From: a virus
Taxonomy: Duplodnaviria > Caudoviricetes
Virus record (IMG/VR): IMGVR_UViG_3300036770_008730
Length of the DNA: 64,000 nt
Strand: one strand, 5' to 3'
Made by a program: the position numbers and the translations under genes. Numbering within the stretch: the stretch's first letter is position 1; each line of letters starts with the position of its first letter. Below are positions 14,443 to 51,142 of this stretch, piece by piece. The notes beneath the pieces are model-generated. The model ran no database searches. It had not been told where the DNA came from and was given only the letters and a program-made list of their open reading frames with translations.

Positions 14443-14943
14443 ATGAATAAACCAAGTAAAGAAGATATAATAAACAAATGGTCATCTATTTTAGGACCTA
14501 TGGGTATTACTGGATCTCAATTAGCTAATATATCTCAGTTAGTCGAAAATCAATCAAATCACATTTTAGAAAATCAGTTAGAAAATGAAGAAGCTAGCAT
14601 CGACTTTTCTTCTCTTCTACCAATTGCTATGAAAGTTGCTTCTAAAACAATCTCAAATGAATTAATATTTGCTTCTCAAGAAGAAATTGACCAAATTAAA
14701 AATAAAGTCCAATCTGAAAATCGTGATGGTAAAATTGAATCTATTGTTGAAGGTTCAGAGTTTACTGAAAAGAAATTAGAAGATGATGAAGAGTATAAAA
14801 AACTAATGAAGAAAGGAGTTTCACCTTTATCTGCTCCCTCTGGAGTATTACATTATTTAGATTATACTTATAATGATAATTCAAAAACTAAAACACATAA
14901 GAAAACGAGAAGAGCTGGAAAAAAACATAAGAAAAATGGGTAA
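14443..14943 (+). CDS. Short protein resembling the N-terminal part of a T4 gp23/gp24-type major capsid protein
   Basis: KWSSILG...LVENQ...LLPIAMKVASKTISNELI...GVSPLSAPSGVLHYLDYTY matches gp23-family N-terminal motifs; only 166 aa; basic tail. Confidence 0.6.
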   Translation: MNKPSKEDIINKWSSILGPMGITGSQLANISQLVENQSNHILENQLENEEASIDFSSLLPIAMKVASKTISNELIFASQEEIDQIKNKVQSENRDGKIESIVEGSEFTEKKLEDDEEYKKLMKKGVSPLSAPSGVLHYLDYTYNDNSKTKTHKKTRRAGKKHKKNG

Positions 14944-15118
14944 ATTTGTGAGTCCTGGAGTTTATGTAAAAGAAGTTGATATCTCAACTTGGATAGTCTA
15001 TAAAAATATTCAAAGAAAGAAAAAAATAGCGAAAATACTTGGAATTGATTACTCTCCTAATGTGATTATAACTTCTACACCAAAAGGTGGTCTTGTTAAC
15101 TTTCCTCAAATTTGGTAA
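14936..15118 (+). CDS. 60-aa protein starting with a tail-sheath N-terminal motif
   Basis: Preferred ATG 14936: MGKFVSPGVYVKEVDIST, the typical SPGVYVxExD start of contractile sheath proteins, then QRKKKIAKILG. Confidence 0.6.
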   Translation: MGKFVSPGVYVKEVDISTWIVYKNIQRKKKIAKILGIDYSPNVIITSTPKGGLVNFPQIW

Positions 15119-15150
15119 GAGAATCATGTTGAGTAGATATATACATTGTT

Positions 15151-15483
15151 ATGTACAATGTGTATCTCATATGCTCTGAAATCGAAGGTAAAAATCTTTA
15201 CAAAATTGGATACACTAGAAGAGAAATAGAGAAACGAATAAAAGAATTCAAAACAGGAAACGCTTCTTCTTTTTATATTGTAGATTCATTTCAATCAGAA
15301 TGGGGAACAAAAATCGAAGCGAGATTACACAGAGTTTTCAATCATAAAAAAATAAGTGGTGAATGGTTTGATCTAGATGAAAATGATATAAAAGAGTTTT
15401 CTAAAATTTGTAATTCTCTACACTCTAATTTTAAATTAATATCAACTCAAAATACTTATTATTTAGATAGAGGTGATTTTTAA
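15151..15483 (+). CDS. T5orf172/Mug113 (GIY-YIG-like) nuclease domain protein
   Basis: YKIGYT...EKRIKEFKTGN...EARLHRVF...GEWFDL. Confidence 0.85.
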   Translation: MYNVYLICSEIEGKNLYKIGYTRREIEKRIKEFKTGNASSFYIVDSFQSEWGTKIEARLHRVFNHKKISGEWFDLDENDIKEFSKICNSLHSNFKLISTQNTYYLDRGDF

Positions 15484-16620
15484 TGCCTCATTTATTTTAT
15501 CAATTACCATTTCAGCAGTTATTTGCTTAGTACATTCAAACTGTCTTTCTGTTCCTTTATGTAGGGGACACCAATTCCAATCTCCAGCATCTAATTTGTG
15601 AGTATTAAAGCAACCATTACAAACACTTTCATTAAAAACTCTAAATGTATTTGTTGTTGTTTCACTATATGGTTTACTAAATCCCGAAATTAAAACAACT
15701 GGTAGTCCACAAGACCAAGCTAACCAAGATAAACCAGACCCCAATCCAATAAATAAATCACATGTAGATAAATCATCAATAACTTCTTGTAAAGACCCAC
15801 CTTTGAATTTAGTAGTACCTTTTGGATGAAAGTTACCCATATATCCATCATTTTCTTTTGAATAGATAACAACTTCATATCCTATACTTTTTAAGTAATC
15901 AACTACTCTTTGCCAACCACCTGAATTATTCCAATATTTAGCCTGTGCTGTTGAGTGTAGACCTAATCCCACTTTCTTTTGTTTTTGTATATTTGGTTGT
16001 TTAAGTAGAGGTTTAATTTCAGTATATTCTAGACCAAGTATATCACAGATTGTTTGTTGTAGAGGTAGTAGTTTGAAATCTCTTGGATTTTGAGATGATT
16101 TAAATTGATCATTTTCATAATACCAACCAATTTTATACATCGCATAGATATTTTGAACTACTTGACCAGGATTTACAAATTGAATATTATTGTATTGTTC
16201 AATAAATAAATAATTGTGAAAAGTTGAAACTATAATCTCACAGTTGTGTTTTTTTCTGAACTCTTCAACATACGGAATCCAAGCTAGTGTATCACCAATT
16301 GAATTAGAATCAAATGCAATATAAACTCTTTTATTTTCAAAATTGACATTATAATCTAAAATAATTTCTTTTGATTTAGAGTTATGAATTTTTATATTCC
16401 AATTTACAAAGTATTTGATACCTGATCTTGACCACATGTTTTTTTTCAGTTTAGATTGATAATGCAATTTACCATCATTAAACATTTGTATTGTGTATTC
16501 ATCATCAATATCGCAATCAATTATTTCTACAAAAGCACCATCAACGAAATTGATGGATATTTTAGGTAAAATTACTTTTTTGATTATTTTTTGATTTTTT
16601 GTTAAGTTATCATATATCAT
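15463..16620 (-). CDS. Autotransporter O-heptosyltransferase (Aah/TibC, BAHT family)-like glycosyltransferase
   Basis: SIGDTLAWIPYVEEFRKKH, STAQAKYWN, FIGLGSGLSWLAW, VVLISGFS, and a tetra-Cys motif CNGC-x13-C-x11-C. Confidence 0.85.
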   Translation of the reverse strand: MIYDNLTKNQKIIKKVILPKISINFVDGAFVEIIDCDIDDEYTIQMFNDGKLHYQSKLKKNMWSRSGIKYFVNWNIKIHNSKSKEIILDYNVNFENKRVYIAFDSNSIGDTLAWIPYVEEFRKKHNCEIIVSTFHNYLFIEQYNNIQFVNPGQVVQNIYAMYKIGWYYENDQFKSSQNPRDFKLLPLQQTICDILGLEYTEIKPLLKQPNIQKQKKVGLGLHSTAQAKYWNNSGGWQRVVDYLKSIGYEVVIYSKENDGYMGNFHPKGTTKFKGGSLQEVIDDLSTCDLFIGLGSGLSWLAWSCGLPVVLISGFSKPYSETTTNTFRVFNESVCNGCFNTHKLDAGDWNWCPLHKGTERQFECTKQITAEMVIDKINEALKITSI

Positions 16621-16698
16621 GACTATTTTATTAACTTATAAAAATTTGTTTACTAAACATATTGAAATTTAATAAATATAAAAAACAATAAATTAATT

Positions 16699-16971
16699 AT
16701 GCAATCATTAAAAGAAAGTTTTATCAGAGAGTACATAACACAAATAGATTTCAAAAGAGATAATTGGAAATTATCTAAAATGAAAGAAGATATGAGAAAA
16801 TTCTTGGGCGAAGAACCAGGTATAGAAGTTGTCTATAGAAAAGATGTTATGATTAATGAAACCACTCAAGAGCCGGTTGAGTTTGTTGATGTTGATAAAA
16901 TAGAAATTATCTTTACCGATCTTGATAATAGATTCAAAAAATTGGAATTTCACGTAAATCAAACATTATAA
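16699..16971 (+). CDS. Hypothetical protein
   Basis: 90 aa ORF, TAATAAATA variant motif upstream. Confidence 0.6.
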   Translation: MQSLKESFIREYITQIDFKRDNWKLSKMKEDMRKFLGEEPGIEVVYRKDVMINETTQEPVEFVDVDKIEIIFTDLDNRFKKLEFHVNQTL

Positions 16972-16972
16972 A

Positions 16973-17188
16973 ATGAAGATAGAAAATTATTATTTAAATT
17001 TAGAAAAAGTAAATACACTTACTAAAGAAGATAAGGATTATATTCATAGATACTATCAAGATATGATGCATCATTTTATGGAGGGTAGAACAACTATTGC
17101 TCAATCTTTATTTCTTACTTTGATGAATCATGACTGTCTAATTGATGTTAGAGATAAAAAATTATCAAAAATCTTAGATGAAAGTTGA
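16973..17188 (+). CDS. Hypothetical protein with C-terminal RDKKLSKIL motif
   Basis: 71 aa, tightly packed in an operon. Confidence 0.6.
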   Translation: MKIENYYLNLEKVNTLTKEDKDYIHRYYQDMMHHFMEGRTTIAQSLFLTLMNHDCLIDVRDKKLSKILDES

Positions 17189-17534
17189 TATTTTAGATTA
17201 TTTAGGAACAATTCAGAACGGAGCATTGGTTCTCATTTCAATAGTTTATGAAAATGAGTACTATGAGGGCACGTTCTATTACAATAAAGATAATATTCTT
17301 GCATTAACTGTTGAAGAGAGATTAGAAAAGGTTTTAGGATGTTCTATTGAAGAATGGAGAGATTATAATGAAATTATGATCAGTCTTATAAAAAGAGTTG
17401 TTCCTGTCAATGAGATCGTTTCAAGATTGGATGAGATAGATATTAAAAAATATACTATTGATGCTATAAATAAACAAATAGTTTATGTTGAGAGTGAAGA
17501 AAGTCCACTAAACCCAACTCAATCTGAAATATAA
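17178..17534 (+). CDS. Hypothetical protein
   Basis: 118 aa, overlaps the upstream stop. Confidence 0.6.
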   Translation: MKVDILDYLGTIQNGALVLISIVYENEYYEGTFYYNKDNILALTVEERLEKVLGCSIEEWRDYNEIMISLIKRVVPVNEIVSRLDEIDIKKYTIDAINKQIVYVESEESPLNPTQSEI

Positions 17535-17559
17535 TAATTTTTTAAATTTTTTCCAATTC

Positions 17560-17649
17560 TTAATCATCATATCTATCTTTGCATTCACCTCTACCTTTAT
17601 TAAAGAGTGTCTCTTCCTTTTCTAAATCACATTTTTTACAAACCTTCAT
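17560..17649 (-). pseudogene. 29-aa remnant of a Zn-finger-led (HNH/EndoVII-type) endonuclease gene
   Basis: Manual translation MKVCKKCDLEKEETLFNKGRGECKDRYDD*; CxxC...EK...F...CKD ends where a fourth Cys is expected. Confidence 0.45.
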
Positions 17650-17677
17650 AACAAATATCGATGTTTTTACTATAACA

Positions 17678-17686
17678 TATATATTA
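17678..17686 (-). promoter_or_regulatory. Putative phage late promoter TAATATATA (minus strand)
   Basis: Exact motif 28 nt upstream of the ATG at 17649. Confidence 0.45.
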
Positions 17687-17704
17687 AAAAATAATTATTT
17701 ATAG

Positions 17705-19450
17705 ATGATAATAGGTGAGATTGGTATAAGGGGATTTAAGTCCTTTGGTAATAACGAAACTGTACTAAAACTAAATACAGAGAAAGGAGAACTAATTCTC
17801 CTTGTTGGTAACAATGGCGCTGGTAAATCATCATTATTAGATTCTTTTGATTATACTCTTTATGGTAAGGTTAGAGGAAAGAAAAAAAGATGGACCACTC
17901 TTTCTACTTTACCCAATCGTATAAATGGTGAATTACTTAATCGTATTAAATTCATTTCAAATTCTACCGAAGTAGAAATAAAAAGAGGTATATCTCCAAA
18001 TCTTTTAGAGTTATATGAGAATGGTCTTTTAAATGAAAGAGCTGGCAAAGCTAATCTTGATGAGAAAATAGAAAAGTATATTGGTATGGATATTGAAACA
18101 TTTAAATCATTTATCTCCATGTCAATTAATGATTTTAAGAACTTTATTTCACTATCAAATGAAGAAAAACAACTACTTCTAGATAAGTTATTTAATTTAG
18201 AAGTTATCAACATTTTAAATTCTATTTTGAAAGATATTAATAAAGGAAATAAAATTAGAATGGCTTCAATTGATAGTGAAATTAAAACACTTGATGAATC
18301 AATACAGTCAATTAAAAGGTCTATTGAAAAGGCACTTGAAAGAGAAAGAGAAGAACAGAGATTAGCACTTGAAAGAGAAAAAGAAGATATTCAATTTGAG
18401 ATTGATAAATTGACTACCGAGATGAGTTCAAAAAAGGATGACTACAAAACTCTTAAAGACAAAGTAGAAAAAATAAAAAATAAAGAAACCGAACTTAGTG
18501 ATGAATTAGAGATTGAAAAAAAACAACATCTAAATACACAAAACGATATTAAAAATGTTCAAAAAGAAATTGACCTTTATGATTCTGGTAAATGTCCTAC
18601 TTGTAAGACAGATTTCAACTCAGTTCATTTCTCAAGCTTAAGAACATCACTTGTTGATAAAAAAACAGCTTTTGAAAATATCAAATTAGAAATTGAGGAA
18701 AATATAAGAAAGATTAAAGAAAAACAACAAAAACTTAAAACACTTTCAGAATCAACAACTACTGCTTTCAATGACTTAAACTATCTTCTTAAAAACATAA
18801 AAGCAGAAATTGATAAACTTACTCAGAAAAAAACCACACAAACAGTTTCTGTTAAATCATCACCATCAATTAATACTAAAGAATTTCAAAATACTATAGA
18901 TGAGCTAAATGATAAGAGAGTTGTTGCTAAGGAACAAGATACAATCTGTAAGGAAAAAGAACTTTACTACAAAGAGTTGAATAGAATTTTTAGCGAAGAT
19001 GGTGTTAAAAAGTCAATTATCTCTGGTATTATTAAACCGATTAATCATTTTATCTCCGATAACATTAAAAAGATGTCAATGAATTTTGATGTAAGATTAG
19101 ATGAAACTTTTACAGCCGAAATTAAACAACTAGGTAGTATAATTGAACACGATTCTCTTAGTACGGGAGAAACTAAGAAAATCAATATTTCAATTTTGAT
19201 AGCTTACTTAAAATTAATAAGAACAAAAAGGCATATCAATATTTTATTTTTAGATGAAGTTTTCTCTTCAATCGACATTGAGGGTATTGATTCAATTTTG
19301 ACATTGTTGAAGTCGTTTGCTAACGACTACAACATTAATATATTTGTAGTACATCATGCTATATTAAACCAAGAAATGTTTGATAGAATAATTAAAATCA
19401 ATAAAGAAGTTTTTTCCTCAATTGAAGAAGTTTTATTAGATAATATATAG
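17705..19450 (+). CDS. sbcC: SbcC/Rad50/T4 gp46-like recombination ATPase
   Basis: Walker A GNNGAGKSS, coiled coils, Zn-hook CPTC, signature LSTGE, Walker B FLDE, H-loop VVHH. Confidence 0.92.
   Translation: MIIGEIGIRGFKSFGNNETVLKLNTEKGELILLVGNNGAGKSSLLDSFDYTLYGKVRGKKKRWTTLSTLPNRINGELLNRIKFISNSTEVEIKRGISPNLLELYENGLLNERAGKANLDEKIEKYIGMDIETFKSFISMSINDFKNFISLSNEEKQLLLDKLFNLEVINILNSILKDINKGNKIRMASIDSEIKTLDESIQSIKRSIEKALEREREEQRLALEREKEDIQFEIDKLTTEMSSKKDDYKTLKDKVEKIKNKETELSDELEIEKKQHLNTQNDIKNVQKEIDLYDSGKCPTCKTDFNSVHFSSLRTSLVDKKTAFENIKLEIEENIRKIKEKQQKLKTLSESTTTAFNDLNYLLKNIKAEIDKLTQKKTTQTVSVKSSPSINTKEFQNTIDELNDKRVVAKEQDTICKEKELYYKELNRIFSEDGVKKSIISGIIKPINHFISDNIKKMSMNFDVRLDETFTAEIKQLGSIIEHDSLSTGETKKINISILIAYLKLIRTKRHINILFLDEVFSSIDIEGIDSILTLLKSFANDYNINIFVVHHAILNQEMFDRIIKINKEVFSSIEEVLLDNI
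19441..19449 (+). promoter_or_regulatory. Putative phage late promoter TAATATATA heading the nuclease-rpsU-dnaJ cluster
   Basis: Exact motif 4 nt before the ATG at 19454, overlapping the sbcC 3' end. Confidence 0.5.
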
Positions 19451-19453
19451 ACT

Positions 19454-20257
19454 ATGAAACACTTTTTAATTTTTTTATTTTTACTGTTATTTAACAATAT
19501 TATTGCACAAACCGATACTTCTAAATTAAACATCATTTCCTGGAATATTCAAAATTTTGGTAGATCAAAATCCGAATTGGTAGATGTTATGAATTATATT
19601 GCTTCTAAAGTAAAATCATATGATATAGTAGCTGTTCAAGAAGTTTCAACTTCTGAATTTGGATCACAAGCTGTCGCCAAATTAGATGATTTGTTGGATA
19701 GAACTGGTTCATCTTGGGACTATATTGTATCAAATCCTACTACTGGACAAGGTTCAGAAAGATATGCTTATTTATACAAAAAACATAGAGTGTCTTTAAA
19801 GTTTGCTGATTTGGAAAAATCATTACAGGATTCACTTAATCGAGAACCGTTTAGAGCGATTTTTATATTCAAAGGACAAGAATATTTTCTTTTTAATTTA
19901 CACTTAGTGCCAACCAATAAGCACCCAGAAATAGAGGCCCAAAAATTAGGCCATTTAAATAAAACCTATTCTGGTAAAAGAATAGTCCTGATGGGTGATT
20001 TAAATCTTAGTCAATCAAATTCTGGATTCAATAGTCTAAAAAAATTTACTAAACCAACTTTAATTAGTAAAAAAACATCATTAAAAATGAAAGAAGATGG
20101 TGTTTCACCAATGAATATGGAATATGACAACTTTTTTATATCAACAAATATAAATTTAACAAAGTCTGATGTAATCGAGTTTTGGAAAGACTACAAAGAT
20201 CTGAAATCGGCAAGAAAGGTATCAGACCACTGTCCAATATATTGTATAATAAAATAG
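19454..20257 (+). CDS. Endonuclease/exonuclease/phosphatase (DNase I-like) with N-terminal signal peptide
   Basis: SWNIQNFG, AVQEV, ERYAYLY, REPF, HLVP, MGDLN, YDNFF, SDHCP; leader MKHFLIFLFLLLFNNIIAQ. Confidence 0.9.
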   Translation: MKHFLIFLFLLLFNNIIAQTDTSKLNIISWNIQNFGRSKSELVDVMNYIASKVKSYDIVAVQEVSTSEFGSQAVAKLDDLLDRTGSSWDYIVSNPTTGQGSERYAYLYKKHRVSLKFADLEKSLQDSLNREPFRAIFIFKGQEYFLFNLHLVPTNKHPEIEAQKLGHLNKTYSGKRIVLMGDLNLSQSNSGFNSLKKFTKPTLISKKTSLKMKEDGVSPMNMEYDNFFISTNINLTKSDVIEFWKDYKDLKSARKVSDHCPIYCIIK

Positions 20258-20264
20258 TTTTATA

Positions 20265-20456
20265 ATGATAGTTATAAAAATTGACGATAAAAATTCTCTT
20301 GAAAAAGCTCTTAAGAAATATAAGAGAAAATTTGATAATCTTAAAATAGTTAAACAACTTAGAGAGAGAAAAGAGTTCAAAAAGATATCAGTAAAAAGAA
20401 GAGAACAGATTAAAAAGGCTCAGTATATTGAGAACAAATTTAGAAATATCGAATAA
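20265..20456 (+). CDS. rpsU: 30S ribosomal protein bS21
   Basis: LEKALKKYKRKF...LRERKEFKKISVKRREQIKKAQY; 63 aa; Bacteroidota-like. Confidence 0.92.
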   Translation: MIVIKIDDKNSLEKALKKYKRKFDNLKIVKQLRERKEFKKISVKRREQIKKAQYIENKFRNIE

Positions 20457-20457
20457 C

Positions 20458-20658
20458 ATGGCTTGTCCAAAATGCGATTCTTTAAATGTGAAGCGAAGAT
20501 TTTACGCGCCTGTTTCAAAATATGGTCATTTACCTACACCGCCTGTTGATTTTTGTGATGATTGTGGATTTAAATCACAAGAATCATTTAGTTCTATAAA
20601 CTTCAGACATCAAAGAGATTATAAATTAGAACAAATATTACAAAATGGGGTTCAATAA
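20458..20658 (+). CDS. Small Zn-ribbon protein with C-terminal RDYKLEQIL motif
   Basis: Preferred ATG 20458: CPKC...CDDC. Confidence 0.65.
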   Translation: MACPKCDSLNVKRRFYAPVSKYGHLPTPPVDFCDDCGFKSQESFSSINFRHQRDYKLEQILQNGVQ

Positions 20659-20851
20659 AAGATACATCAGTCGAGAAAATTTATCTTACTATAAAGTAAG
20701 AACAGTCAAAGAATTAATTTCTTTTATAAAGAATCCAGATTGTTTAATAATTGAGGATTCTTATTCAGAAAAAATTTGTAATATAGTTAATAATACAAAA
20801 CAAGAATTTTTATATTCAAAGTTAAAAGAAATTGGATTTTATGAATCTTAA
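20645..20851 (+). CDS. Hypothetical protein
   Basis: 68 aa, overlaps both neighbours. Confidence 0.55.
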   Translation: MGFNKRYISRENLSYYKVRTVKELISFIKNPDCLIIEDSYSEKICNIVNNTKQEFLYSKLKEIGFYES

Positions 20852-21560
20852 TAAGAACTATTATAAAATTTTAGAAGTTGATTCTTCTTCTGATGAAAAG
20901 GTAATAAAAAAATCCTACTATAAGTTATCATATAAACATCATCCTGATAAAAAAGGAGATCCTATTGTCTTTGCTGAAATCACAGAAGCTTACAACATAC
21001 TTTCTACTGACAAAAGAAAAGAGTATGACTTAAAAAGTAAGTTTGGAAAGAATTATAATGAGTATTTTGAACTCTTTGAGATTAATTTTGAATTAGATCA
21101 AAAAAAAGAAAAAGAGAGATTTGAAAACTTCAAAAAAAATGATATTGATAATATTGTAATTAAGATTGATGATAGTTTTGACGGAACATTAGAATATGAA
21201 AGATGGATAAAGTGTAAAACTTGTGGAGGAACTGGAAAGGACAATTCAGCAAAAATTTTAATTAAAGACACAAATGGTAATGTTATTAAAACATTTGATG
21301 CTGATGATGGTTGTGATTTTTGTGAGGGAACTGGAAAAGACTATACCGGTTCTGATTGTAGTTTCTGCCATGGTAAAGGTAAAGTAGGACTTAATAATTG
21401 CAAAAATTGCAATGGTGAGAAAAGAATTCTTGGAAAACAAAAACTCAAAGGAATCAAATTAAATGGAAAAGAAACAAAATTAGACGCTATGGGTCATCAT
21501 TCTAAAAATGAAGTAGGAAAAGTTGGATATCTTCTATTGATAAATACTGAAAATTATTAA
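20841..21560 (+). CDS. dnaJ: DnaJ-family co-chaperone (J domain plus Zn fingers, short C-terminus)
   Basis: NYYKILEV...HPD; CKTCGGTG, CDFCEGTG, CSFCHGKG, CKNCNGEK. Preferred ATG 20841. Confidence 0.9.
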   Translation: MNLNKNYYKILEVDSSSDEKVIKKSYYKLSYKHHPDKKGDPIVFAEITEAYNILSTDKRKEYDLKSKFGKNYNEYFELFEINFELDQKKEKERFENFKKNDIDNIVIKIDDSFDGTLEYERWIKCKTCGGTGKDNSAKILIKDTNGNVIKTFDADDGCDFCEGTGKDYTGSDCSFCHGKGKVGLNNCKNCNGEKRILGKQKLKGIKLNGKETKLDAMGHHSKNEVGKVGYLLLINTENY

Positions 21561-24500: not shown

Positions 24501-24817
24501 TCAACATTTGAATAATCAATGCTATCACCCCAGACTGTATTTGCTGAAAATGATGCGGAAGAGTTGAAGAAATTACCAACGTAAGTTGTATATTGATATG
24601 TTTTTTTACTATTGAATGTTGTCGCTGTAGGATTCCTATAAATTAATTTTGGTAAATTTCCAGGAAATGGATATGATATATTTACTCCTAAACCAGTTCC
24701 GGTCAATGTCCAATTAGGAATACTTGAGTCAAAGTAGCTAGTTGCCCAATAGTATCCACTACTTGGTAATCCAAATGATATTACTGCTGACATTGGAGGC
24801 GCACTAGGAAATCCCAT
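21557..24817 (-). CDS. Large putative virion protein with W-x-x-G repeats
   Basis: 1086 aa; GIWENGVWNSGW and WLSGVFLNGYYTGIWNSG arrays, similar to ORF 2..3067. Confidence 0.6.
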   Translation of the reverse strand: MGFPSAPPMSAVISFGLPSSGYYWATSYFDSSIPNWTLTGTGLGVNISYPFPGNLPKLIYRNPTATTFNSKKTYQYTTYVGNFFNSSASFSANTVWGDSIDYSNVDRNSFVAGMEPPSPGNGFLYFYSNPSTNITSNDYVIYKANNAFGLGGNSEALYETRINEIDFDIQGFAWWRDGNSGTQSTAISFSASTDGRGWCYYPDTNSYIWYDDVAGTIFPAQIVEANLYGGFVKARVVIGSASLNYLVKYIDYGKFNLSFTYTKASGSVNDGIDIYLSQEKPSNDYYILNSPQFIPDTAELLASYTQSGMSGSSTFSAYFGLTGKQYLIIKARTTDTSTIQALSNINIEGGYWSGNNRRYLTTNSNLYLNPTSLTPIGLTGATFSAYTGTGNTYNATQSLDVQQIFSKIGNGKFMAGIWENGVWNSGWRYDEVVYELYDIGQYFSLDRGKIWRFQIIGPPLTIEKFNIGDKVSLGNIVAIDFNEDRKLLKGYFTIINKNSNSFVVELINNFPLKRIEKDSPFHRIKITKNVWLSGVFLNGYYTGIWNSGLFKGYPLITEMFDSSWIDGTFDGGHFSSQLYSVTFSNTYFTKGNKLGLSFSQPHKLYTNDLIYIDKDNKGINSSYDGTASVVTVTNEYQIITDKDYGTEPTQSESGSIYTGISTGLVQNFTFKSNNTSKLSSVDYLDSDAVFLYNSWLDVNYYTYSAVNIGRPNTIRNNISLKEYSQNNLYGYPTDDVLSSTSYFRNSYNNLELSYSLGTKYKIFNDYIGEASNFENYFDPTNVDATDFLNLGWTYSSGGLNSIVFSRSIETKAKNISRSGFSYSWTNVREDLLVGSEMQIDAISSGGVLNISEPSEITNFRVSEKVSKSRYTMVEFNLARWSAQTPYYESNDSTISKITTLYKEETLSQPILHFDNLNVVTRDIYYGSAIGTFSTTVNASFFPVYQNVNHILTPVSKKIEYFFNKTNLSMNFRGSGWYGALTASILIDNLKYYEVDMIPFFQYFTTNNINFGIEIPYQGIAPFIDYSNANFQFLDNVSIGLDSFSVNASNVAVSGIGAGIGFSAPSSSGGGIGIEDISGPSVIDLMD

Positions 24818-24851
24818 TTACTATTTATTAATTTTTTATTATTCTCTATCC

Positions 24852-30160: not shown

Positions 30161-30283
30161 ATGAAAGAAATTAAATATCAAAGATTTATTGACAGACTTA
30201 GTACCTCTTTAAGAAAATCTAAAAAAAATAGATTAAGAGTTTTCCAAAGAAAAATTAAAATTATTAGCATTTTCAATTCTTAA
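30161..30283 (+). CDS. 40-aa basic micro-ORF ending in RKIKIISIF
   Basis: Manual translation MKEIKYQRFIDRLSTSLRKSKKNRLRVFQRKIKIISIFNS*; fills an otherwise empty 240-nt gap. Confidence 0.55.
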   Translation: MKEIKYQRFIDRLSTSLRKSKKNRLRVFQRKIKIISIFNS

Positions 30284-32828: not shown

Positions 32829-33941
32829 TTATTTTTTTTTGAACTCTTTTTTATCATTAGAAATATATAAATTGTCAAAGTTATAATACTTATCAAATAT
32901 TTCTCTAATTTTTTTTGGTTTTACTTCATCTAAGATTTCATAAACTGACCAATCTTTTGGATTAATCCATTGATTAACATTTTTATATCTTAAGATTTCT
33001 TCTTTTTGTTTTCTTACACCATAATATTCCTTTACTATATTAAACCTATCTTTAGTTAAGTATTTACCTGGATTATCTAAAACTATTTTAATTGAATCAA
33101 CAACAGCATTAAAGTTTTTATTTGAAGTTTGTGTTGATATAGTATTGATACCTTGATTATTTAGTCTTGATTGGTAACAGTGAACATAATATACCAATCC
33201 TCTTTTCTCACGAATCTCCTGATAAAGAGGTGATTTCAATCCTAAAGAAAGCATTGCATTTATAAAATGAATATAAGCAAAGTCTTCATTAATTACCGGT
33301 GAAAGAATTGAAATAGAGGTCTTATCTTTGAAATCATTATTTAACTCTAATGGAACTTTATGGTCACCATAGGTAGTGTCTTTAACGATTATTCTGTCAG
33401 TAAAATCTAAAGTATTGTTTTTATACTTTTTGTTTTTACTAACATTAATTACTTTAGTAGGTTTTGAATATTGAAGTTCAAAGTAGTTCAAACAATCCAT
33501 AAATTTAAGATTTACTAAATCCTCTTTTAAACCAATAGGATCATAATCGTTAAATAATTTTCTCGAAAGATTTAACATATGTGATTGAGATTGGTCATTA
33601 AAGCAATCCATATATTCTTCTAATACGATGTTTCTTTCATTTTCAAACTGTTCTTTAGTAACATTGAACTGACCAAGTAAGTCCATAAACTCACCTTTCC
33701 ACTTATTTACTTTTTCATCTAATCCTGTTAGATAAAACACTATTTCATTTGATGAAGTGTAGGCATTCCATTCGATACCATCTTTATCAAAATCTTCTTG
33801 AAGATGGTCAAAGTTTTTGCACATAAGATGCTCCATTAAGTGTGATATACCATACCACCCTTTTTTCTCTAAATTAGTCGAGCCTTCATAAACTATGTAA
33901 AAGCCAGATAAGTCTGTTTGAGATTTTAAATTAATGATCAT
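32829..33941 (-). CDS. M16 family (insulinase-like) zinc peptidase
   Basis: GISHLMEHL (HxxEH), NAYTS, ERNIVLEE, LYQEIREKRGLVY. Confidence 0.9.
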   Translation of the reverse strand: MIINLKSQTDLSGFYIVYEGSTNLEKKGWYGISHLMEHLMCKNFDHLQEDFDKDGIEWNAYTSSNEIVFYLTGLDEKVNKWKGEFMDLLGQFNVTKEQFENERNIVLEEYMDCFNDQSQSHMLNLSRKLFNDYDPIGLKEDLVNLKFMDCLNYFELQYSKPTKVINVSKNKKYKNNTLDFTDRIIVKDTTYGDHKVPLELNNDFKDKTSISILSPVINEDFAYIHFINAMLSLGLKSPLYQEIREKRGLVYYVHCYQSRLNNQGINTISTQTSNKNFNAVVDSIKIVLDNPGKYLTKDRFNIVKEYYGVRKQKEEILRYKNVNQWINPKDWSVYEILDEVKPKKIREIFDKYYNFDNLYISNDKKEFKKK

Positions 33942-37216: not shown

Positions 37217-37936
37217 ATGATTGTAGTTTGTAAAAAAGCAACAAAAAAACTTGTAAAGGGATTAAGATATGAAGTTCAAAATCTTTGGAATGATGGAGGA
37301 AATCAACGATGGTTAGAATCAAAGATTGAAATAAAAGGAATTGGTCGTTATTCGGTTGATAACTTTACTGATACAGATGGTAAATCTTTGCCTAAAATTA
37401 ATTTTTTAACTCCAAGACCTGTCTACAGAACATTAACTTTTGAAGAATTAAAAGAGGGTGATATCTTAGTTTGCACATGTGATTCTTACAAAACTTTAGC
37501 AAAAGACTCTATGTATAGAATTAGTAAACTCATAACAAAATCAACAGATTATAGAGGTTATAATGGAACTATTCATCAAAGGGTTGATAAGAATGTTCAA
37601 TTTGAAGGGATAAAAAGAGCTATCAAATTCTCTAGTTGGAAATTTAGAAAACTTAGTTCAGAGGAATCTCGTGAAATACAATTATCTTCTATTTTGAATG
37701 GTGAGAAGCCACCAGTTATTATTACATCATCTGCAAGAAAAATTGATTTAGTTACAAACAAAGATCGAGTTTTAATGAACTTACTAGCTAAATCAATTTT
37801 GGACTCAAATAGACATCATCTTTCGATATTAGAATGGGCTATTCAAAAAGTAGGTAATAACTATTCAATAACAGAAGAAGATTATAAATCTTTACTCAAT
37901 CTTTCACTGAAGGAAGTTTTGGAAAAACTGAAATAA
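37217..37936 (+). CDS. Hypothetical protein
   Basis: 239 aa, contains REIQLSSIL. Confidence 0.6.
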   Translation: MIVVCKKATKKLVKGLRYEVQNLWNDGGNQRWLESKIEIKGIGRYSVDNFTDTDGKSLPKINFLTPRPVYRTLTFEELKEGDILVCTCDSYKTLAKDSMYRISKLITKSTDYRGYNGTIHQRVDKNVQFEGIKRAIKFSSWKFRKLSSEESREIQLSSILNGEKPPVIITSSARKIDLVTNKDRVLMNLLAKSILDSNRHHLSILEWAIQKVGNNYSITEEDYKSLLNLSLKEVLEKLK

Positions 37937-37949: not shown

Positions 37950-37953
37950 TCTT

Positions 37954-38694: not shown

Positions 38695-38695
38695 A

Positions 38696-39806: not shown

Positions 39807-39864
39807 ATTTATTTTTTGTGAGTTACAATTGTTTTATGTTTAAGAAACTAAAAGTTTACAAAAT

Positions 39865-40245: not shown

Positions 40246-40275
40246 ATAGTTTTTATGAATTGTGATTAATAAGTT

Positions 40276-45092: not shown

Positions 45093-45093
45093 T

Positions 45094-48000
45094 TTATAAT
45101 ACTGATAAATTTGATGGTACTACTACTTTTTTAAGTACTACTTTATTTCTGAATAAGTTGAACTTGACAGTAAATGTAAATGGTCTATTTTCTGACTCAT
45201 TTTCTAAATAAAATTTAATCTTTTTAACATGTTTTACTGTATTTTGTATATTGTTGAAATCAACATATCTATAGTTCAGTCCTTTTTGATTTATATCAAG
45301 TGAATTTACTTTGAAATAAATGTTTATAGGTATAATTATTGAGTTTTTATCACCTGGATCTATCTCTTTAACTTTTTTGGAGTTATTCTCCACAAGAGTC
45401 TCAAGATCTTTTACAACAGGATGTATTGTTGTTAAAAACTTTGTTGTTGATGCAACAGATACTGTAGTATCAACCCACTTTGAGCTATCAATAAGTGATT
45501 TGTTATTTCCTACAAAACTTAATATTGATGTTTCATTATATCCAATATTGAATTCATTTGAAGAAAGCACATTGGTTATTGAATTATTATTATTTCTAGT
45601 GAACGAGTTACCAATATTTTCTGATAACTTTGTAACAGCATTTTGTGTAATTGCGTCATAATTAGTCATCCAAATAAATTGATTATCCAAATGACTTCTT
45701 GTTTGTCCACTTGAATCAGAAGTTATAAGTTCATGTCTATCATTAACCCAGAATGTCTGAGGCGCACCAGTGTTATAAAAGTCAGGATTTTGTAGGTATG
45801 TTCTGCTGGAAATTAAACCAAGTGGTGATTGAGTTGCTCTGTTTCTAACTTTTATTACAAAGTCTTTAATCACATATACATTGTTAGCATACACTCTACC
45901 TGTATTTACTCCTGTTCCAGAGAATACATCCATATAATCTTCACAATCAATATTGAATGTAGTTTCAGAACCTCTACTAACTATAAATTCTTGATTATTT
46001 CTGATAATAATAACTTCAAGTTCACCTTTAGCTCTTCTTACTAATTCTTCTAATCCTCTGATTCTATCTTCAAGTGACTTTAGATATTCGAATAAATCAA
46101 GATTTATTCCGTTCTCATCTTTAAATCCTGAAATTATTTTAGTGCTATCATGATGAAAAACTTTGTTATTAAGAACAACTGTGTCTGCCAAGTGTTCATC
46201 TAAACCTCTCGAAGTTAATTCTGAAGACATTTTTATTTTCAGATCATCTTTTGTAGCTTCTTGTAAGATAAACTCGTTCTCATTAAGTACATTATTCAAA
46301 TCATCTGGAAACTCAACTGTTAGGATTTCAGACCAATCTGACTCAACTGGAGATTCTGGCCAACCAACCTCTGATATAGATTTGATTCTCATTTCAATCT
46401 TTTCATTTGTTTGAATATCTACATCAATTTGATTGATGTTTGGAGTGTCTGCGCTTTCAATATCTTCAATTTGCCAACTATACTCGTTGGTTTTTGGGTC
46501 AAATATTCTCTTTCTGGCATCAGTTTTTAACTCTTTCCAATTTGAGAAAGATGCCTTAACTCTTGTGTTAGCTCTAGCATTAACAGTTGAAATGTCAAAA
46601 GTTTCAATAGGTGATTCTCTTCCATCTTTAGATACATATCTATATTGCACTCTGAATTGTACAATCTCTTGAGGCTTTGTGCCTCTAGTAACTATTGGAT
46701 CTGGAATTGTCCAAAAACCTCTAACTCTGAATTTTGGTTGAACTTTAATTTTGGGACTTTTTGATAAATCAATAATTTCTTGAGTCAAAGCTGATTGTTG
46801 CTTTATCTTAGAGTCTTTCTTTTTTGAAAGTTCATCTATTTCTTTATTCGCTGTTCTTCTATCAGATTCGCTTTTAAATTTTGTTACTTTTGCAATTTTG
46901 TTTCTATCTTGAATTGCATTTTCAATCTGCTGAAGCTCTGATTTAATTGAGTTTTGTAAATTAAATTTTTGCTTTATTAAGTTACTATCTGGAGTATCTG
47001 TTAAGTGTTTATTAATTTGAACTACTTTGAAATTTGCAGCATTAAGTGTTGGTGCAACTGGTGTACCAGCTAAAGAGTTAGGTGTTTTTTTTGCGACTAA
47101 ATCTTGTAATACAACCCCATAATCATAAACAACTTCTGTGTAGTATTGCTCCATTGTTTTACCATTGTCTGATGTATCCGCACTAAGTCTCAGATCATTT
47201 GACCAGTATCCTGTTCCAAGAGACCATCTTCTAGCTACTAGATGATTTTCAGTGTTTATTGGCTTCATGAATACAACATTTCTTTCATTGTAACCAACAC
47301 TTACTTTAATTTTTTTGGATTGTAATATAGGTGAGTATATTTTCAATGTTCCTATTCCTACTCTTAGTGGTTCTATTCCCTCAACTCTTTCAAATCTTAC
47401 TCTTGGTAAAGATTGAGATGTATTGACTTCAATTACTTTGTATCTTGTTGAAGTTTGTGAAATGTTGATTATAACTTCGTCACCTGCAGTCAACTTACTT
47501 GTTGTGTTTGTAGCAATTACTAAGTAATCTAATGTGTCAAGCACATACCACAATTTTCTATTAATTCTGTCTTCTTGAATTCTAATTATACTGAATACAC
47601 CATCATATTGTAATTCATTTGGTAGTAAATCAAAAACTTGCTCATCATACTTTGGATTTAGTGGTTCTATTACACCAGGTGTGGTAGAGTGCCAATTAAG
47701 AAAATCCTGTAAAACAATTGTTGCATTTCCTCTGAATTGAGAATTAAAACTATTCAAAGCTGACTGACCCACTGGAGTAAATCCACCTGTTGAATCTTTT
47801 GCAAAATTTACAATATATCTTCTAACTAAACACTTTCTTACATTACTTTCTACCTGTGATGTTATATCAAATTCTACCGAAAGTAAAGGATCTAATAAAC
47901 CATCAAAAAACCAATTAACATCTGATTTGAATTGAGTCACTCCACCTAAAGATGTCAATGGAGCGGGTTCTCTATTTAAATCTACAGTAATAAGTTTTTT

Positions 48001-48279
48001 GAATTTATTTGCATTAGAAGTTTGTATTAATGACCCATTTGCGTCTATACCATATAAAGAATTAATGTTATTATTCAGTCTGTCAATTTCAGATTTGAGA
48101 GCTGCGAATGATGGTAGATTAAAACTCCTTAAAACACCAGCATCGTCAAAAACCTGGATATTAACCGATGGTTCAGTTGTAGTTATTAGTGTATTAATTT
48201 TTGTGAGAATATCTACTACATTTTTATTGTAAGATACAATTTGGTCAGCCACTTTAGGAAATGTACTTTGTATTGCCAT
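45094..48279 (-). CDS. Large putative virion structural protein with coiled coils
   Basis: 1061 aa; FN3-like RIKSISEVGWPESPVESDWS; late motif upstream. Confidence 0.55.
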   Translation of the reverse strand: MAIQSTFPKVADQIVSYNKNVVDILTKINTLITTTEPSVNIQVFDDAGVLRSFNLPSFAALKSEIDRLNNNINSLYGIDANGSLIQTSNANKFKKLITVDLNREPAPLTSLGGVTQFKSDVNWFFDGLLDPLLSVEFDITSQVESNVRKCLVRRYIVNFAKDSTGGFTPVGQSALNSFNSQFRGNATIVLQDFLNWHSTTPGVIEPLNPKYDEQVFDLLPNELQYDGVFSIIRIQEDRINRKLWYVLDTLDYLVIATNTTSKLTAGDEVIINISQTSTRYKVIEVNTSQSLPRVRFERVEGIEPLRVGIGTLKIYSPILQSKKIKVSVGYNERNVVFMKPINTENHLVARRWSLGTGYWSNDLRLSADTSDNGKTMEQYYTEVVYDYGVVLQDLVAKKTPNSLAGTPVAPTLNAANFKVVQINKHLTDTPDSNLIKQKFNLQNSIKSELQQIENAIQDRNKIAKVTKFKSESDRRTANKEIDELSKKKDSKIKQQSALTQEIIDLSKSPKIKVQPKFRVRGFWTIPDPIVTRGTKPQEIVQFRVQYRYVSKDGRESPIETFDISTVNARANTRVKASFSNWKELKTDARKRIFDPKTNEYSWQIEDIESADTPNINQIDVDIQTNEKIEMRIKSISEVGWPESPVESDWSEILTVEFPDDLNNVLNENEFILQEATKDDLKIKMSSELTSRGLDEHLADTVVLNNKVFHHDSTKIISGFKDENGINLDLFEYLKSLEDRIRGLEELVRRAKGELEVIIIRNNQEFIVSRGSETTFNIDCEDYMDVFSGTGVNTGRVYANNVYVIKDFVIKVRNRATQSPLGLISSRTYLQNPDFYNTGAPQTFWVNDRHELITSDSSGQTRSHLDNQFIWMTNYDAITQNAVTKLSENIGNSFTRNNNNSITNVLSSNEFNIGYNETSILSFVGNNKSLIDSSKWVDTTVSVASTTKFLTTIHPVVKDLETLVENNSKKVKEIDPGDKNSIIIPINIYFKVNSLDINQKGLNYRYVDFNNIQNTVKHVKKIKFYLENESENRPFTFTVKFNLFRNKVVLKKVVVPSNLSVL

Positions 48280-48299
48280 TTGAATACTTCTATTTTTTT

Positions 48300-48308
48300 T
48301 ATATATTA
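48300..48308 (-). promoter_or_regulatory. Putative phage late promoter TAATATATA (minus strand)
   Basis: Exact motif 20 nt upstream of the ATG at 48279. Confidence 0.55.
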
Positions 48309-48378
48309 AATTTTACTTATTTCTTTGCTGGAAGTTTTACTTTTTGCATTTTCAGTATATTTATTTTTAGAATGACCA

Positions 48379-48408
48379 TTGTCAAATCAATTTTTTTTAT
48401 TATATTTG
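48379..48408 (+). promoter_or_regulatory. Bacteroidota sigma70-type promoter (TTG-N19-TATATTTG)
   Basis: TTG 48379-81, TAnnTTTG 48401-08, ATG 4 nt later. Confidence 0.7.
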
Positions 48409-48412
48409 TAAT

Positions 48413-50233
48413 ATGATTGAACAACTAAAACAACAAATTATCAAAGCAAATGAAGCTTATCGTATTGGTAAGTCAATTATGTCAGACTCTCAATATGACC
48501 AATTAGTTGAAGAGTTATCTTTATTATCACCAAATGATGAACTTCTAACAAAAGTTGGACATACTCCGTCTGATGAATCTCGTAAAAGTCGTCTTCCAAT
48601 AGAAATGGCTTCTATGAATAAAATAAAATCTATTGATGATGTAAATGATTGGTGTCGACTAAAAGGTATTTCTAAAAATGAATTAGTTGTTATCACTCCT
48701 AAATACGATGGTCTTTCTCTTTGTGTTAATGAGAAAACTGGCGAAGCTTGGACACGTGGTGATGGTACAATAGGTCAAAAGTCTGATTCTCATTATAAAT
48801 TTATCGGAAATCACTTATCTAAAACTTCAAAAGTTCAATTTACTTATGGTGAAGTTATGATGTCTAAAAAGACATTCATTGAAAAATATTCATCTGATTT
48901 TGCTAATCCCAGAAATCTTGTCGCTGGACTTCTCAATTCTAAAGAAATTTCAGAAATACTAAAAGATACTAGCTTTATTAAGTACGGTTCAATCACTGAA
49001 AATAATTTCACAAAAAAAACCGAGTTGTTAGACCTTCTAAATCAAAATCAATCAATTAAAGTTCCTTATCTTGTTTGTAAAATTTCGGACATCACTGAGC
49101 AATTTCTAATTGATGCCTTTAAAGATTTTTCTATCGAATATGAAATTGATGGTCTAATAATTGAAATAAATGACCTCAATCTACAAAATCAATTAGGTAG
49201 AGAAACCTCTTCGAATAATCCTGTTTGGGCAAGAGCATTCAAACATCCTTCTTTTGAACAATCTGCTGAAACCGAAGTTATCGGTATCACTTGGAATATA
49301 TCAAAACAAGGCTTACTTAAACCTACTTTACATATCAAACCTGTTAAACTTGACGGTGTTACTGTTTCTAACGTAACTGGTAATAACGCCCGATTTGTAA
49401 AAGATTTAGGAATTGGTGTAGGAGCCAAAGTTGTAGTAAAGAGAAGTGGAATGGTCATTCCAATTATTGCTGATGTTATTACACCGGTTGAATTCAAAAT
49501 GCCTGATGTTCCGAATATTGATTGGAATGAAAACGGAGTTGAACTTATCACTTTGACCGAAACAGATGAGCAAAAGTTAAAAAAGAATATCTCTTTCTTT
49601 GAGATATTAGAAGCTGACAACGTGTCAGAAGGAGTCATTACCCAATTATGGGATGCCGGATATAAAACTATTAAAGACATTCTAAATCTTAAAACTTCTG
49701 ATTTAGAAAAAATTGACCGTTTTGGAAAGAGAAAGGCACAGATTGTATTTAATTCTATTCAGAAGTCAATTAGTGGTGTTTCTTTATCAAAAGTTCAACA
49801 CGCGACTGGAATCTTTAAAGGATTAGGTAGTAAAAAGTTAGCACTTTTAGAACACTTTACAACTAAACCAACTGTTGAAGAAGTCATGCAAATTGAAGGT
49901 TTTGCAGAAGTATCTGCTAAATCTTATGTAGATAGTTATGATGAATACTTTAATTTTGTTAAAGATTTACCGATTAAAATTGAAGAAAAAATAGAAGTTG
50001 CTAAAACTGGTACGGATCTTGATGGGACACAATTTGTATTCACAGGAGTAAGACGAGCTGACTTAGAAAGTATTATTGAATCTCGTGGTGGTAAAATCGG
50101 AAGTGGTGTTAGTAAGAATACTACACACTTAGTGATGAAGGCTGTTGGTTCTGGTTCTTCAAAAGAAAAGAAGGCTCAGGATTTAGGAGTTAAGATTATT
50201 ACTGTTGATGAATTAGAAAAAATGTTATCATAA
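48413..50233 (+). CDS. ligA: NAD-dependent DNA ligase
   Basis: YDQL, MASMNK, PKYDG, TRGDG, NPRNLVAG, EIDG, OB fold, HhH motifs, C-terminal BRCT (FVFTG...SKNTTHLV). Confidence 0.95.
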   Translation: MIEQLKQQIIKANEAYRIGKSIMSDSQYDQLVEELSLLSPNDELLTKVGHTPSDESRKSRLPIEMASMNKIKSIDDVNDWCRLKGISKNELVVITPKYDGLSLCVNEKTGEAWTRGDGTIGQKSDSHYKFIGNHLSKTSKVQFTYGEVMMSKKTFIEKYSSDFANPRNLVAGLLNSKEISEILKDTSFIKYGSITENNFTKKTELLDLLNQNQSIKVPYLVCKISDITEQFLIDAFKDFSIEYEIDGLIIEINDLNLQNQLGRETSSNNPVWARAFKHPSFEQSAETEVIGITWNISKQGLLKPTLHIKPVKLDGVTVSNVTGNNARFVKDLGIGVGAKVVVKRSGMVIPIIADVITPVEFKMPDVPNIDWNENGVELITLTETDEQKLKKNISFFEILEADNVSEGVITQLWDAGYKTIKDILNLKTSDLEKIDRFGKRKAQIVFNSIQKSISGVSLSKVQHATGIFKGLGSKKLALLEHFTTKPTVEEVMQIEGFAEVSAKSYVDSYDEYFNFVKDLPIKIEEKIEVAKTGTDLDGTQFVFTGVRRADLESIIESRGGKIGSGVSKNTTHLVMKAVGSGSSKEKKAQDLGVKIITVDELEKMLS

Positions 50234-50646
50234 TGGCACTAACTTGTCCTAAATGTGAGAGATTAAATAAGTGCAACTGTAAGAGTTGCAATCCAGATGG
50301 TACTGCAACAGATTTAGTTATCATTCTTGAAGATGAACAACTATATCAATGTTGCTTTTGTAGTCATAAATTTGATGAACAAGATTCATTAGATTTTGAT
50401 TGGGATAGAATTCACCAGAACTTTAAGAAAAGTATTACACCGGAAATGGCTCTTCATTGGAAGATAATGACTAAATTTGGAACAAAAACAGAATTGAAAG
50501 AGTATCAAGGCTCGATTGGTTCTTATGGATTTGAGTCTGCCTTTTTTCAACATTTTGGAATTAGACACAATAATTGTGGTCATAAAGAATTAGAACAGAT
50601 TAAATTGCAATTAGAAAGAGATAAAAAATTAAATAAAATAATATAA
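50233..50646 (+). CDS. Cys-rich Zn-binding protein with C-terminal RDKKLNKII motif
   Basis: CPKC...CNCKSC...CCFC. Confidence 0.65.
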   Translation: MALTCPKCERLNKCNCKSCNPDGTATDLVIILEDEQLYQCCFCSHKFDEQDSLDFDWDRIHQNFKKSITPEMALHWKIMTKFGTKTELKEYQGSIGSYGFESAFFQHFGIRHNNCGHKELEQIKLQLERDKKLNKII

Positions 50647-50647
50647 T

Positions 50648-51142
50648 ATGGGTTGTGACATACATTTTTTCACAGAGAGGTACACTGCCTCTAATAATTA
50701 CGAAGGTCCAAAAGATTTGGCAGAAGATAGAAATACAAAAATAGAAGAAGTTATTGATGGAAAACCACTATCAGAAAGATGGGTTTCTGCTGATGGGTGG
50801 TCACTGGATGATAATAGGTGGGTACACGTGGAAAAATTTTGGTCAAGAAATTACTATCTTTTTTCTATATTAGCTGATGTTAGAAATGGTGGTGATGTAG
50901 AACCTATTTCTTATCCAAGAGGAATCCCTCGTGATGCCTCATATGGTTATAAATATTCAGTAAAACAATGGGATAGTGATGGACATTCACACTCTTACTT
51001 CACTCTTCAGGAGTTGTTAGATGTTGATTGGATTCAATATGAAAAAGAATATATTGAAGACTTTCTTAAAGTGATTGATGAATTGAGGTCATTAGACCCG
51101 GACACAAAAAAAGTAAGAATTTGTTTTTTCTTTGATAACTAA
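50648..51142 (+). CDS. Conserved phage hypothetical protein (MGCDIH-type)
   Basis: MGCDIH...RNYYLFSILADVR...PRGIPRD...HSHSYFTLQELL...RICFFFDN. Confidence 0.7.
   Translation: MGCDIHFFTERYTASNNYEGPKDLAEDRNTKIEEVIDGKPLSERWVSADGWSLDDNRWVHVEKFWSRNYYLFSILADVRNGGDVEPISYPRGIPRDASYGYKYSVKQWDSDGHSHSYFTLQELLDVDWIQYEKEYIEDFLKVIDELRSLDPDTKKVRICFFFDN

Follow-up and report, generated by a model that had tools for sequence, protein, structure and literature searches.

The cargo peptides of encapsulins are C-terminal and Gly/Ser-rich, of the LGIGSL type. Bacteriophage T4 loads diverse proteins by a 10-residue label; this capsid targeting sequence occupies the N-terminus of IPI-III and Alt, directs its bearers to the prohead core and is cleaved off at [LI]-x-E by the head protease, while C-terminal propeptides are found on Alt and gp21 as well (PMC9026906). 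In this study, we analyzed a recurrent peptide motif, R-x-x-K-[IL]-x-x-I-[LIVF], in a 64,000-nucleotide segment of an uncultured huge phage (29% G+C; IMG/VR record IMGVR_UViG_3300036770_008730), hereafter called the window, and in related phages of the same lineage, whose genomes measure ~640 kb. A preliminary description of the window had reported eight instances of the motif. We find that the motif constitutes a genuine address tag, abundant, C-terminal and operating at the protein level, in a clade of huge phages, and we estimate the probability that this tag is read by one shared, co-evolving partner at about 0.6. Literature searches with motif strings and for shared motifs of jumbo phages retrieved no description of it.

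Enrichment and form of the C-terminal tag

The gene set of the window, comprising 63 non-overlapping open reading frames (ORFs) and 20.8k amino acids (aa), contains five strict matches to the motif against 0.23 expected, and none of 5000 within-protein shuffles reached five. The count becomes six when the overlapping ORF 14873-15118 is included. Since the pattern was defined after the window had been viewed, the fair test is DNA that was unseen at that stage, namely LR756502.1, the public record closest to the window (642 kb; 78% aa identity over the SbcC-like ORF 17705-19450). Among the 997 ORFs of this genome, the strict motif occurs 64 times, as compared to 2.8 +/- 1.7 times after shuffling (maximum of 9 in 300 shuffles). 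The reversed motif occurs three times, and the motif with K and R swapped occurs twice. When position 1 is varied, Arg gives the 64 matches and any other residue gives at most 12. Moreover, 53 of the 64 strict matches lie within eight residues of the C-terminus. A search of all spaced residue triplets, blind to the motif, ranked R..KL first among those enriched in the last 16 residues (72 against 3.1 expected, p = 4e-71). The recurrence noted in the window thus extends, far above shuffled expectation, across the proteome and to related phages; its scale had been underestimated in the preliminary description, as the tag covers ~18% of the proteome in the relatives.

An iterated 15-column profile, used at a threshold of at least 11 bits, matches ~200 of the 997 proteins of LR756502, as compared to 2 shuffled and 8 reversed sequences. 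Within 10 residues of the C-terminus lie 81% of these matches, and in the commonest arrangement a single residue follows the motif. The matches give the consensus [K]-[S/Q]-[E]-[I/L]-R-[D/N/E]-x-K-[L/I]-[N/D]-x-[I/L/V]-[L/G], after which there are usually 0-5 residues before the stop codon. The Arg is present in 197 of the 202 tags, and positions 4, 5, 8 and 9 are fixed. Two flavours exist: one ends in ...I-L plus 0-5 residues, and the other in ...[LI]-G-[IL]-COOH (42 of 202). The median bearer is 119 aa long. The density of bearers peaks towards the two ends of the genome: they account for 38 of the 55 genes in the last 22 kb of LR756502, whose tag-rich terminal gene arrays lie at 600-642 kb and 0-40 kb. 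The window, for its part, contains many large structural genes.

The bearers are unrelated to one another. With the tag removed, 150 of the 164 C-terminal bearers are BLASTP singletons, and the other 14 form seven pairs. The mean column identity across 87 bearers is 6%, which does not correspond to a single paralogous family with a terminal helix. A Pfam family was assigned to only three of the 87 bearers of at least 110 aa (riboflavin kinase, DUF6011 and BtpA), none of them of a replication type.

Selection acts at the protein level. The position-1 Arg of the tags is encoded by AGA, AGG, CGT, CGA and CGC in proportions of.70,.20,.07,.03 and.02, respectively, and the corresponding genome-wide proportions for Arg are.71,.15,.07,.05 and.01. 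The Leu and Ile codons within the tags vary freely. Because the Arg codons follow the genome-wide usage, the selected entity is the peptide rather than the DNA.

Conservation among orthologs and predicted structure

The bodies of the bearers diverge, and the tag persists. An ortholog in the closest genome exists for 56 of the 164 bearers of LR756502, and 55 of these 56 LR745206 orthologs keep the C-terminal tag at a mean body identity of 41%. In these pairs, the Arg is 100% conserved and the variable tag positions are less conserved than the body. Similarly, ORF 50233-50646 has 137 metagenomic homologs; the tag is kept, and its R129 is invariant, in an alignment of 77 sequences. ORF 16973-17188 has six homologs and an LR745206 ortholog (48% identical), all of which keep V-R-D-x-K-[LI]-x-x-[IV]-L, and the homolog P0129 of ORF 20428 (77% identical) keeps RDYKIEQIL. 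The motif is therefore conserved within orthologs, one of the two points on which the preliminary description had made its reality depend. Of the tagged proteins of LR756502, only one has a homolog in LR756504 and three have one in LR756501.

AlphaFold2 models of two bearers place the tag in a helix. In the model of ORF 50233 (predicted local distance difference test score, pLDDT, 93), the tag forms the end of the last helix, residues 117-136; a fold search with this model gave no PDB match at E <= 0.001. In the model of ORF 16973, the body is modelled at a pLDDT of ~90-95, and the tag helix, residues 59-69, at ~50-60 with its position not fixed. This combination of a confident body and a loosely placed helical tag looks like a tethered docking helix, although it is only a prediction.

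Versions of the tag in related genomes

We compared five complete records, including LR745206.1 (634 kb) and LR756504.1 (636 kb), which share 73% and 45% aa identity, respectively, with the SbcC-like ORF of the window. The census counted proteins with R...[ILM]..[ILVM][ILGVMF] in the last 19 residues; an internal control window gave 5-6 in three of the genomes. Four genomes bear the tag, and LR756500 is tag-less.

LR756502: 187 of 997 proteins tagged; R-[DNE]-x-K-[IL]-x-x-I-L, which is also the version of the window
LR745206: 173 of 974 proteins tagged; R-[DNE]-x-K-[IL]-x-x-I-L
LR756504: 101 of 956 proteins tagged; R-K-x-K-I-x-[DE]-L-L, usually at the very end
LR756501: 22 of 1049 proteins tagged; R-T-x-L-[IM]-D-x-M-L, 20 terminal against 1 elsewhere
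LR756500: 4 of 705 proteins; background only

The version thus switches coherently across many unrelated proteins, for which a single reader, changing along with the lineage, is the best explanation.

Other C-terminal motifs were observed in the two more distant genomes. About 40 proteins of LR756501 carry a Trp-ending motif (P.G...W, Y.E..W), and 13 proteins of LR756500, some of them apparently paralogs, carry a C-terminal ...N-A-D-D-F-G-[FL]...

The eight sites in the window

All of the eight peptides of the preliminary description are present on the + strand, and the positions given there were ORF starts; the motifs themselves lie as follows, with bit scores from the profile built on LR756502.

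50617..50643, + strand: canonical C-terminal tag RDKKLNKII, the last 9 residues of ORF 50233-50646 (24.2 bits)
20614..20640, + strand: canonical C-terminal tag RDYKLEQIL, then 5 residues, ORF 20428-20658 (20.7 bits)
17150..17176, + strand: canonical C-terminal tag RDKKLSKIL, then 3 residues, ORF 16973-17188, 71 aa (17.6 bits)
15014..15040, + strand: RKKKIAKIL(GI), of the ...L-G-I flavour, 25 residues before the end of ORF 14873-15118 (11.5 bits)
14722..14748, + strand: internal copy RDGKIESIV, 64 residues from the end of ORF 14443-14943 (16.1 bits)
37670..37696, + strand: internal variant REIQLSSIL in a conserved 239-aa protein, ORF 37217-37936 (14.5 bits)
50729..50755, + strand: internal variant RNTKIEEVI near the N-terminus of ORF 50648-51142 (18.5 bits)
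30248..30274, + strand: RKIKIISIF in the 40-aa ORF 30161-30283 (only 7.5 bits)

Four of the sites are indeed within about six residues of the C-terminus, with 3, 5, 2 and 0 residues following the motifs at 17150, 20614, 30248 and 50617, respectively. The eight bearers are small, and no common family was found for them in Pfam or PHROGs. As a single set, however, the eight instances do not hold together: three are canonical tags, and at least one is probably not a tag.

Among the canonical bearers, ORF 50233-50646 encodes a 137-aa protein composed of a zinc ribbon and a helical part. ORF 20428-20658 encodes a CxxC...CxxC protein, 76 aa long as listed from a TTG codon, and its homologs P0128 and P0129 begin at MACPKC, 10 residues further in. 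Two metagenomic homologs of this protein, P0128 and P0130, hardly differ as far as RDYKLD, a point within the tag, and continue with unrelated sequence, which reflects either recombination at the tag-coding DNA or assembly chimeras on short contigs.

The copies at 14722 and 15014 are not terminal, yet they are conserved in the relatives. The orthologs at the 14722 site read RDGKIDSII and RDRKIDSIT. Residues 6-75 of the protein of ORF 14443-14943 copy the N-terminal region of a T4-type major capsid protein (BLASTP E = 2e-5 against LR756502 227452-229167), so that its layout consists of a capsid-like N-terminal part, an internal tag and a very basic tail. At the 15014 site, the LR756502 counterpart has the FVSPGVYxKEVDIS start in common and reads RRGKICRLLGI downstream of it. 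ORF 14873-15118 overlaps ORF 14443-14943 by 71 nt, and its real start is probably the internal MGKFVSPGVY. We considered the FVSPGVYxKEVDIS peptide as the N-terminus of a tail sheath; no long protein in the five genomes carries it, and this identity is not claimed.

The sites at 37670 and 50729 lie inside conserved globular proteins, and their status as tags is uncertain. At the former, the orthologs read RELQLSSVL and REISLNHIL in proteins that are 45-54% identical; at the latter, where ORF 50648-51142 matches phrog_10141 (E = 2.7e-32), the ortholog reads REEKLGVVL. Finally, tblastn with ORF 30161-30283 gave no match in LR756502 or in that part of LR745206 which is syntenic; the site at 30248 is probably due to chance, and the ORF is possibly not a gene.

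Gene context of the window

The window carries collagen-like and lectin-like fibre proteins, an M28 peptidase and the following further genes, according to Pfam.

15151-15483, + strand: T5orf172/MUG113-domain gene, adjoining ORF 14873-15118
20265-20456, + strand: homolog of ribosomal protein bS21 (PF01165, 35.6 bits)
32829-33941: M16 peptidase, active-looking by its sequence (HLMEH present)
48413-50233: NAD-dependent ligase
51163-51897, + strand: sigma-70 factor
51918..52481, + strand: divergent ClpP homolog (CLP_protease, E = 1.9e-24)
54175-54612, + strand: SmpB

The sigma-70 factor, the divergent ClpP and SmpB belong to a cluster at 51163-54612 on the + strand, together with a nucleotidyltransferase and a thioredoxin. 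The bS21 gene overlaps the start of the tagged zinc-ribbon ORF 20428-20658. The T5orf172/MUG113-domain gene possibly encodes a homing-type nuclease, and the translation of ORF 20832-21560, with a J-domain HPD motif and Cys-rich repeats, is that of a probable DnaJ-like protein. In LR756502.1 we also noted 46 tRNA genes, 44 of which lie in a few arrays at 373-435 kb, with a further locus at 581-583 kb; duplicated species are among them, and for one the 'anticodon' call has two bases.

The proposed reader of the tag

Which partner would read the tag? The preliminary description had proposed a portable amphipathic docking helix for one hub, with RNA polymerase, the ribosome, a clamp, ClpP or a phage compartment as the hub. 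The helix has fared better than the hubs: the element is portable, protein-level, predicted helical, conserved and lineage-versioned, and none of the named hubs is directly supported. We propose that the tag would be a portable, short amphipathic helix on the fast-evolving accessory proteins of the clade, and that one common partner, probably phage-encoded, would read it and co-evolve with it. Two points weigh against this proposal. About 19% of the profile matches are internal. In addition, the length of the tail after the tag ranges from 0 to 12 residues in orthologs, and the last residue of this tail is often polar; a free carboxylate in a fixed register is therefore not required.

The leading candidate for the reader, though a weak and tentative one, is the phage's own ClpC-like unfoldase acting with ClpP. 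The strong C-terminal bias of the tag suggests a machine that engages proteins from that end. The ClpC-like unfoldase is encoded in all four tag-bearing genomes and is absent from LR756500; in LR756502 it has 707 aa and consists of D1, the M-domain and D2 with a VGF ClpP-docking loop, with no N-domain. LR756502 and LR756504 encode two canonical ClpP proteins plus a divergent third, and two canonical ones were detected in LR745206. A tagged mini-protein at LR756502.1 320919-321134 matches directly the M-domain (UVR-like coiled coil) of the ClpC-like unfoldase, and its paralog at 381760-382026 has the same motif; these two copies may count as circumstantial support for the Clp route. By this route, the tag would make accessory proteins short-lived or timed.

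Considerable evidence stands on the other side. Known Clp degrons are short, unstructured and apolar, and not helices with an invariant Arg. LR756501 has tags and the ClpC-like gene but no ClpP. About 50 ClpC neighbourhoods (+/-10 kb) on distant IMG/VR contigs show no such tag; a de novo motif search on the IMG/VR ClpC neighbourhoods was confounded by repeated orthologs. Roughly 110 proteins are conserved throughout the four genomes that bear the tag. The phylogenetic profile of ClpC, which occurs in these four genomes and not in LR756500, yields 59 candidates in all, so that 58 other proteins share it, including Hsp70 and an M16 peptidase. Ten small candidates have no telling Pfam family (matches: bS21, NADAR, cREC_REC and a phage metallopeptidase). 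The profile is thus too unspecific to name the reader, and a correlation over five genomes contains very few independent events. Furthermore, there is no evident reason for a phage to destabilise 18% of its own proteins.

Transfer-messenger RNA (tmRNA) offers no link to the motif either. One full tmRNA gene was detected.

LR756504.1 280507-280863, - strand: full tmRNA (Rfam, 65 bits; missed by ARAGORN)

As read from the sequence, its frame to the canonical stop would encode an unusually long tag ending ...EMAVAA. This ordinary ...AVAA end is unlike the motif; it counts against the Clp route, and tmRNA mimicry was rejected on the same ground. ARAGORN found no tmRNA in LR756502 or in the window, and Rfam found none in LR756502 or LR745206, LR756504 being its only hit. 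The window, which is of the LR756502/LR745206 lineage, encodes SmpB though no tmRNA was found in those two genomes.

Two further Clp-related mechanisms were rejected. Arginine phosphorylation of the invariant Arg by McsB, with recognition by ClpC, is contradicted by the finding of no ATP:guanido phosphotransferase in the five genomes, and the N-domain by which phospho-Arg is read is missing from the phage ClpC. Docking of the ...L-G-I end in a ClpP pocket fails as a general reading, as the Gly is present in only 42 of the 202 tags.

A second label at the N-terminus

An unbiased search at the N-termini revealed another label, M-K-[HY]-L-[KR]-x-[YF]-[NKE]-[EIL]-[FS]-E-S. It is found on 76 proteins of LR756502, 59 of LR745206 and 20 of LR756504, and on none of LR756501 and LR756500; the window contains none at 9 bits or above. 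Three examples follow.

LR756502.1 12533-13042: N-terminal label
LR756502.1 13051-13518: N-terminal label
LR756502.1 419029-421860: N-terminal label

The two labels avoid each other. They coincide on a single protein in LR756502, as compared to 14.3 expected, and on a single protein in LR745206, as compared to 10.5 expected; together, they mark about a quarter of the proteome. This suggests separate fates for the proteins sorted by each label. By its position and size, the N-terminal label is the closer analogue of the T4 capsid targeting sequence. It is possible, though doubtful, that the labels form a sorting code with two mutually exclusive addresses and two fates, for example head loading and ClpC-ClpP, in which the labels are rewritten together with their readers in each lineage.

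Alternative explanations

We consider it unlikely that the tag is a virion-loading signal, in which a C-terminal, propeptide-like label would take small proteins into the prohead for ejection with the DNA. The model for this explanation is the T4 capsid targeting sequence or the encapsulin cargo peptides that bind an HK97-fold shell, and the latter share the C-terminal position of the tag. The phage has a T4-like capsid protein, which matches the T4-type major head family and which we take to be of the HK97 fold class. Tagged mini-proteins copy pieces of it: besides the window ORF 14443, LR756502.1 277261-277446 and 234417-235202 copy C-terminal parts (aa 513-546 and 417-551, respectively), and the mini-protein at 315773 likewise copies a piece. 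Judged by sequence, these tagged copies may keep a virion-related role alive, and T4 sets a precedent for both label loading and C-terminal propeptides (PMC9026906). Still, the tag has neither the N-terminal position nor the adjacent head-protease site of a T4-type capsid targeting sequence, as a protease-type [LIVM]-x-E directly precedes the tag Arg in just 1 of 202 cases. The bearers include metabolic enzymes (riboflavin kinase and a BtpA-family protein), and 160-190 cargo species would be very many. Finally, the separate N-terminal label looks more like the T4 label and is almost never on the same proteins, which makes it the more natural signal for head loading and such a role less likely for the C-terminal tag.

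Equally improbable is docking on a non-proteolytic hub, such as the sliding clamp, RNA polymerase or its sigma factor, a chaperone (Hsp70 or DnaJ-like) or a viral-factory scaffold, where the bearers would be concentrated. In the consensus, a polar residue precedes the h-x-x-h-h pattern by three positions, a spacing equal to that of a PIP-box; the phage encodes Hsp70, the window encodes the probable DnaJ-type protein and the sigma factor, and the tag co-evolves with the lineage. The PIP-box itself, Q-x-x-[LIM]-x-x-[FY]-[FY], is not what the tags show, since only 3 of the 202 have Gln at position 2. No gp45-type clamp was detected with PF09116. Nearly all of the bearers lack a known family and are not replication or transcription proteins, and the ligase and the Toprim primase of the window carry no tag by profile scoring. 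Hsp70 occurs in all four tag-bearing genomes, but its profile is common to 58 others and does not single it out. DnaK peptides, moreover, are poorly matched by the acidic and polar residues inside the tag core. About 180 client species would swamp a stoichiometric hub, and a docking motif need not be C-terminal in 81% of cases.

It is very improbable that the tag has no reader at all and acts as a generic helical C-terminal cap, which would stabilise new small proteins or hide their ends from host tail-specific proteolysis. The bearers are young and turn over fast, with an ortholog in the closest genome for only 56 of 164, and the L-x-x-[LI]-G-[IL]-COOH flavour fits a Schellman-type helix C-cap. 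However, the near-invariant Arg, the fixed positions and the coherent switches between lineages exceed what capping needs, and the mutual exclusion with the N-terminal label suggests sorting rather than stability.

The least probable explanation by far, a DNA or RNA signal at gene ends (a promoter, a translation-initiation region or a recombination site) that is translated by accident, could draw on the median gap of -1 nt between a tagged gene and the downstream gene, which puts the tags just upstream of the next start codon, on a mild excess of A-ending codons within the tag and on the two homologs of ORF 20428 that diverge inside it, but it is largely refuted by the codon usage described above, and in addition all other frames and small ORFs of LR756502 hold 20 strict matches against the 64 in genes, the downstream gene is convergent for 34 of the 202 bearers, and the variable positions of the tag have changed more quickly than the protein body, with R, K, I and L retained.

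A peptide address read by one co-evolving partner would have wider consequences. Present on 160-190 unrelated proteins, the tag offers a first functional entry point into the 'dark' accessory proteome of the largest phages known, and it predicts which proteins of unassigned function have a common fate. The coherent version switches between lineages provide a natural co-evolution experiment for finding the reader. Should the tag prove to direct degradation or loading, engineering would also gain a portable tag that is ready to use.

Comparison with known systems

Clp C-terminal degrons and adaptor tails: The ssrA tag, the MuA-type C-motif 2 and the SspB XB tail are likewise short C-terminal recognition elements. 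They hand diverse proteins to an AAA+ protease, and the phage encodes ClpC-like and ClpP proteins. A degron, however, is an apolar and unstructured end, whereas the phage tag is a predicted helix with an invariant Arg and a variable tail.

PIP-box and clamp-binding tails: The tails of T4 gp43, gp33 and gp55 and of the archaeal and eukaryotic PCNA partners share with the tag the C-terminal position, the same spacing and the principle of one hub for many clients. The tag differs in that its hydrophobic pair is aliphatic (positions 8 and 9 are I/L/V and L/G/I) rather than aromatic, and it has far more bearers.

Encapsulin cargo-loading peptides: These are also short C-terminal peptides, and they load unrelated cargo onto an HK97-fold shell. 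The phage tag differs from them in sequence and would have far more cargo species.

T4 capsid targeting sequence: In contrast to this label, the phage tag is C-terminal, has another sequence and no adjacent cleavage motif, and covers ~18% of the proteome. The two systems nevertheless share their logic, as each is a portable label of ~10 residues on unrelated, fast-evolving small proteins, in which the label is conserved and the cargo is not.

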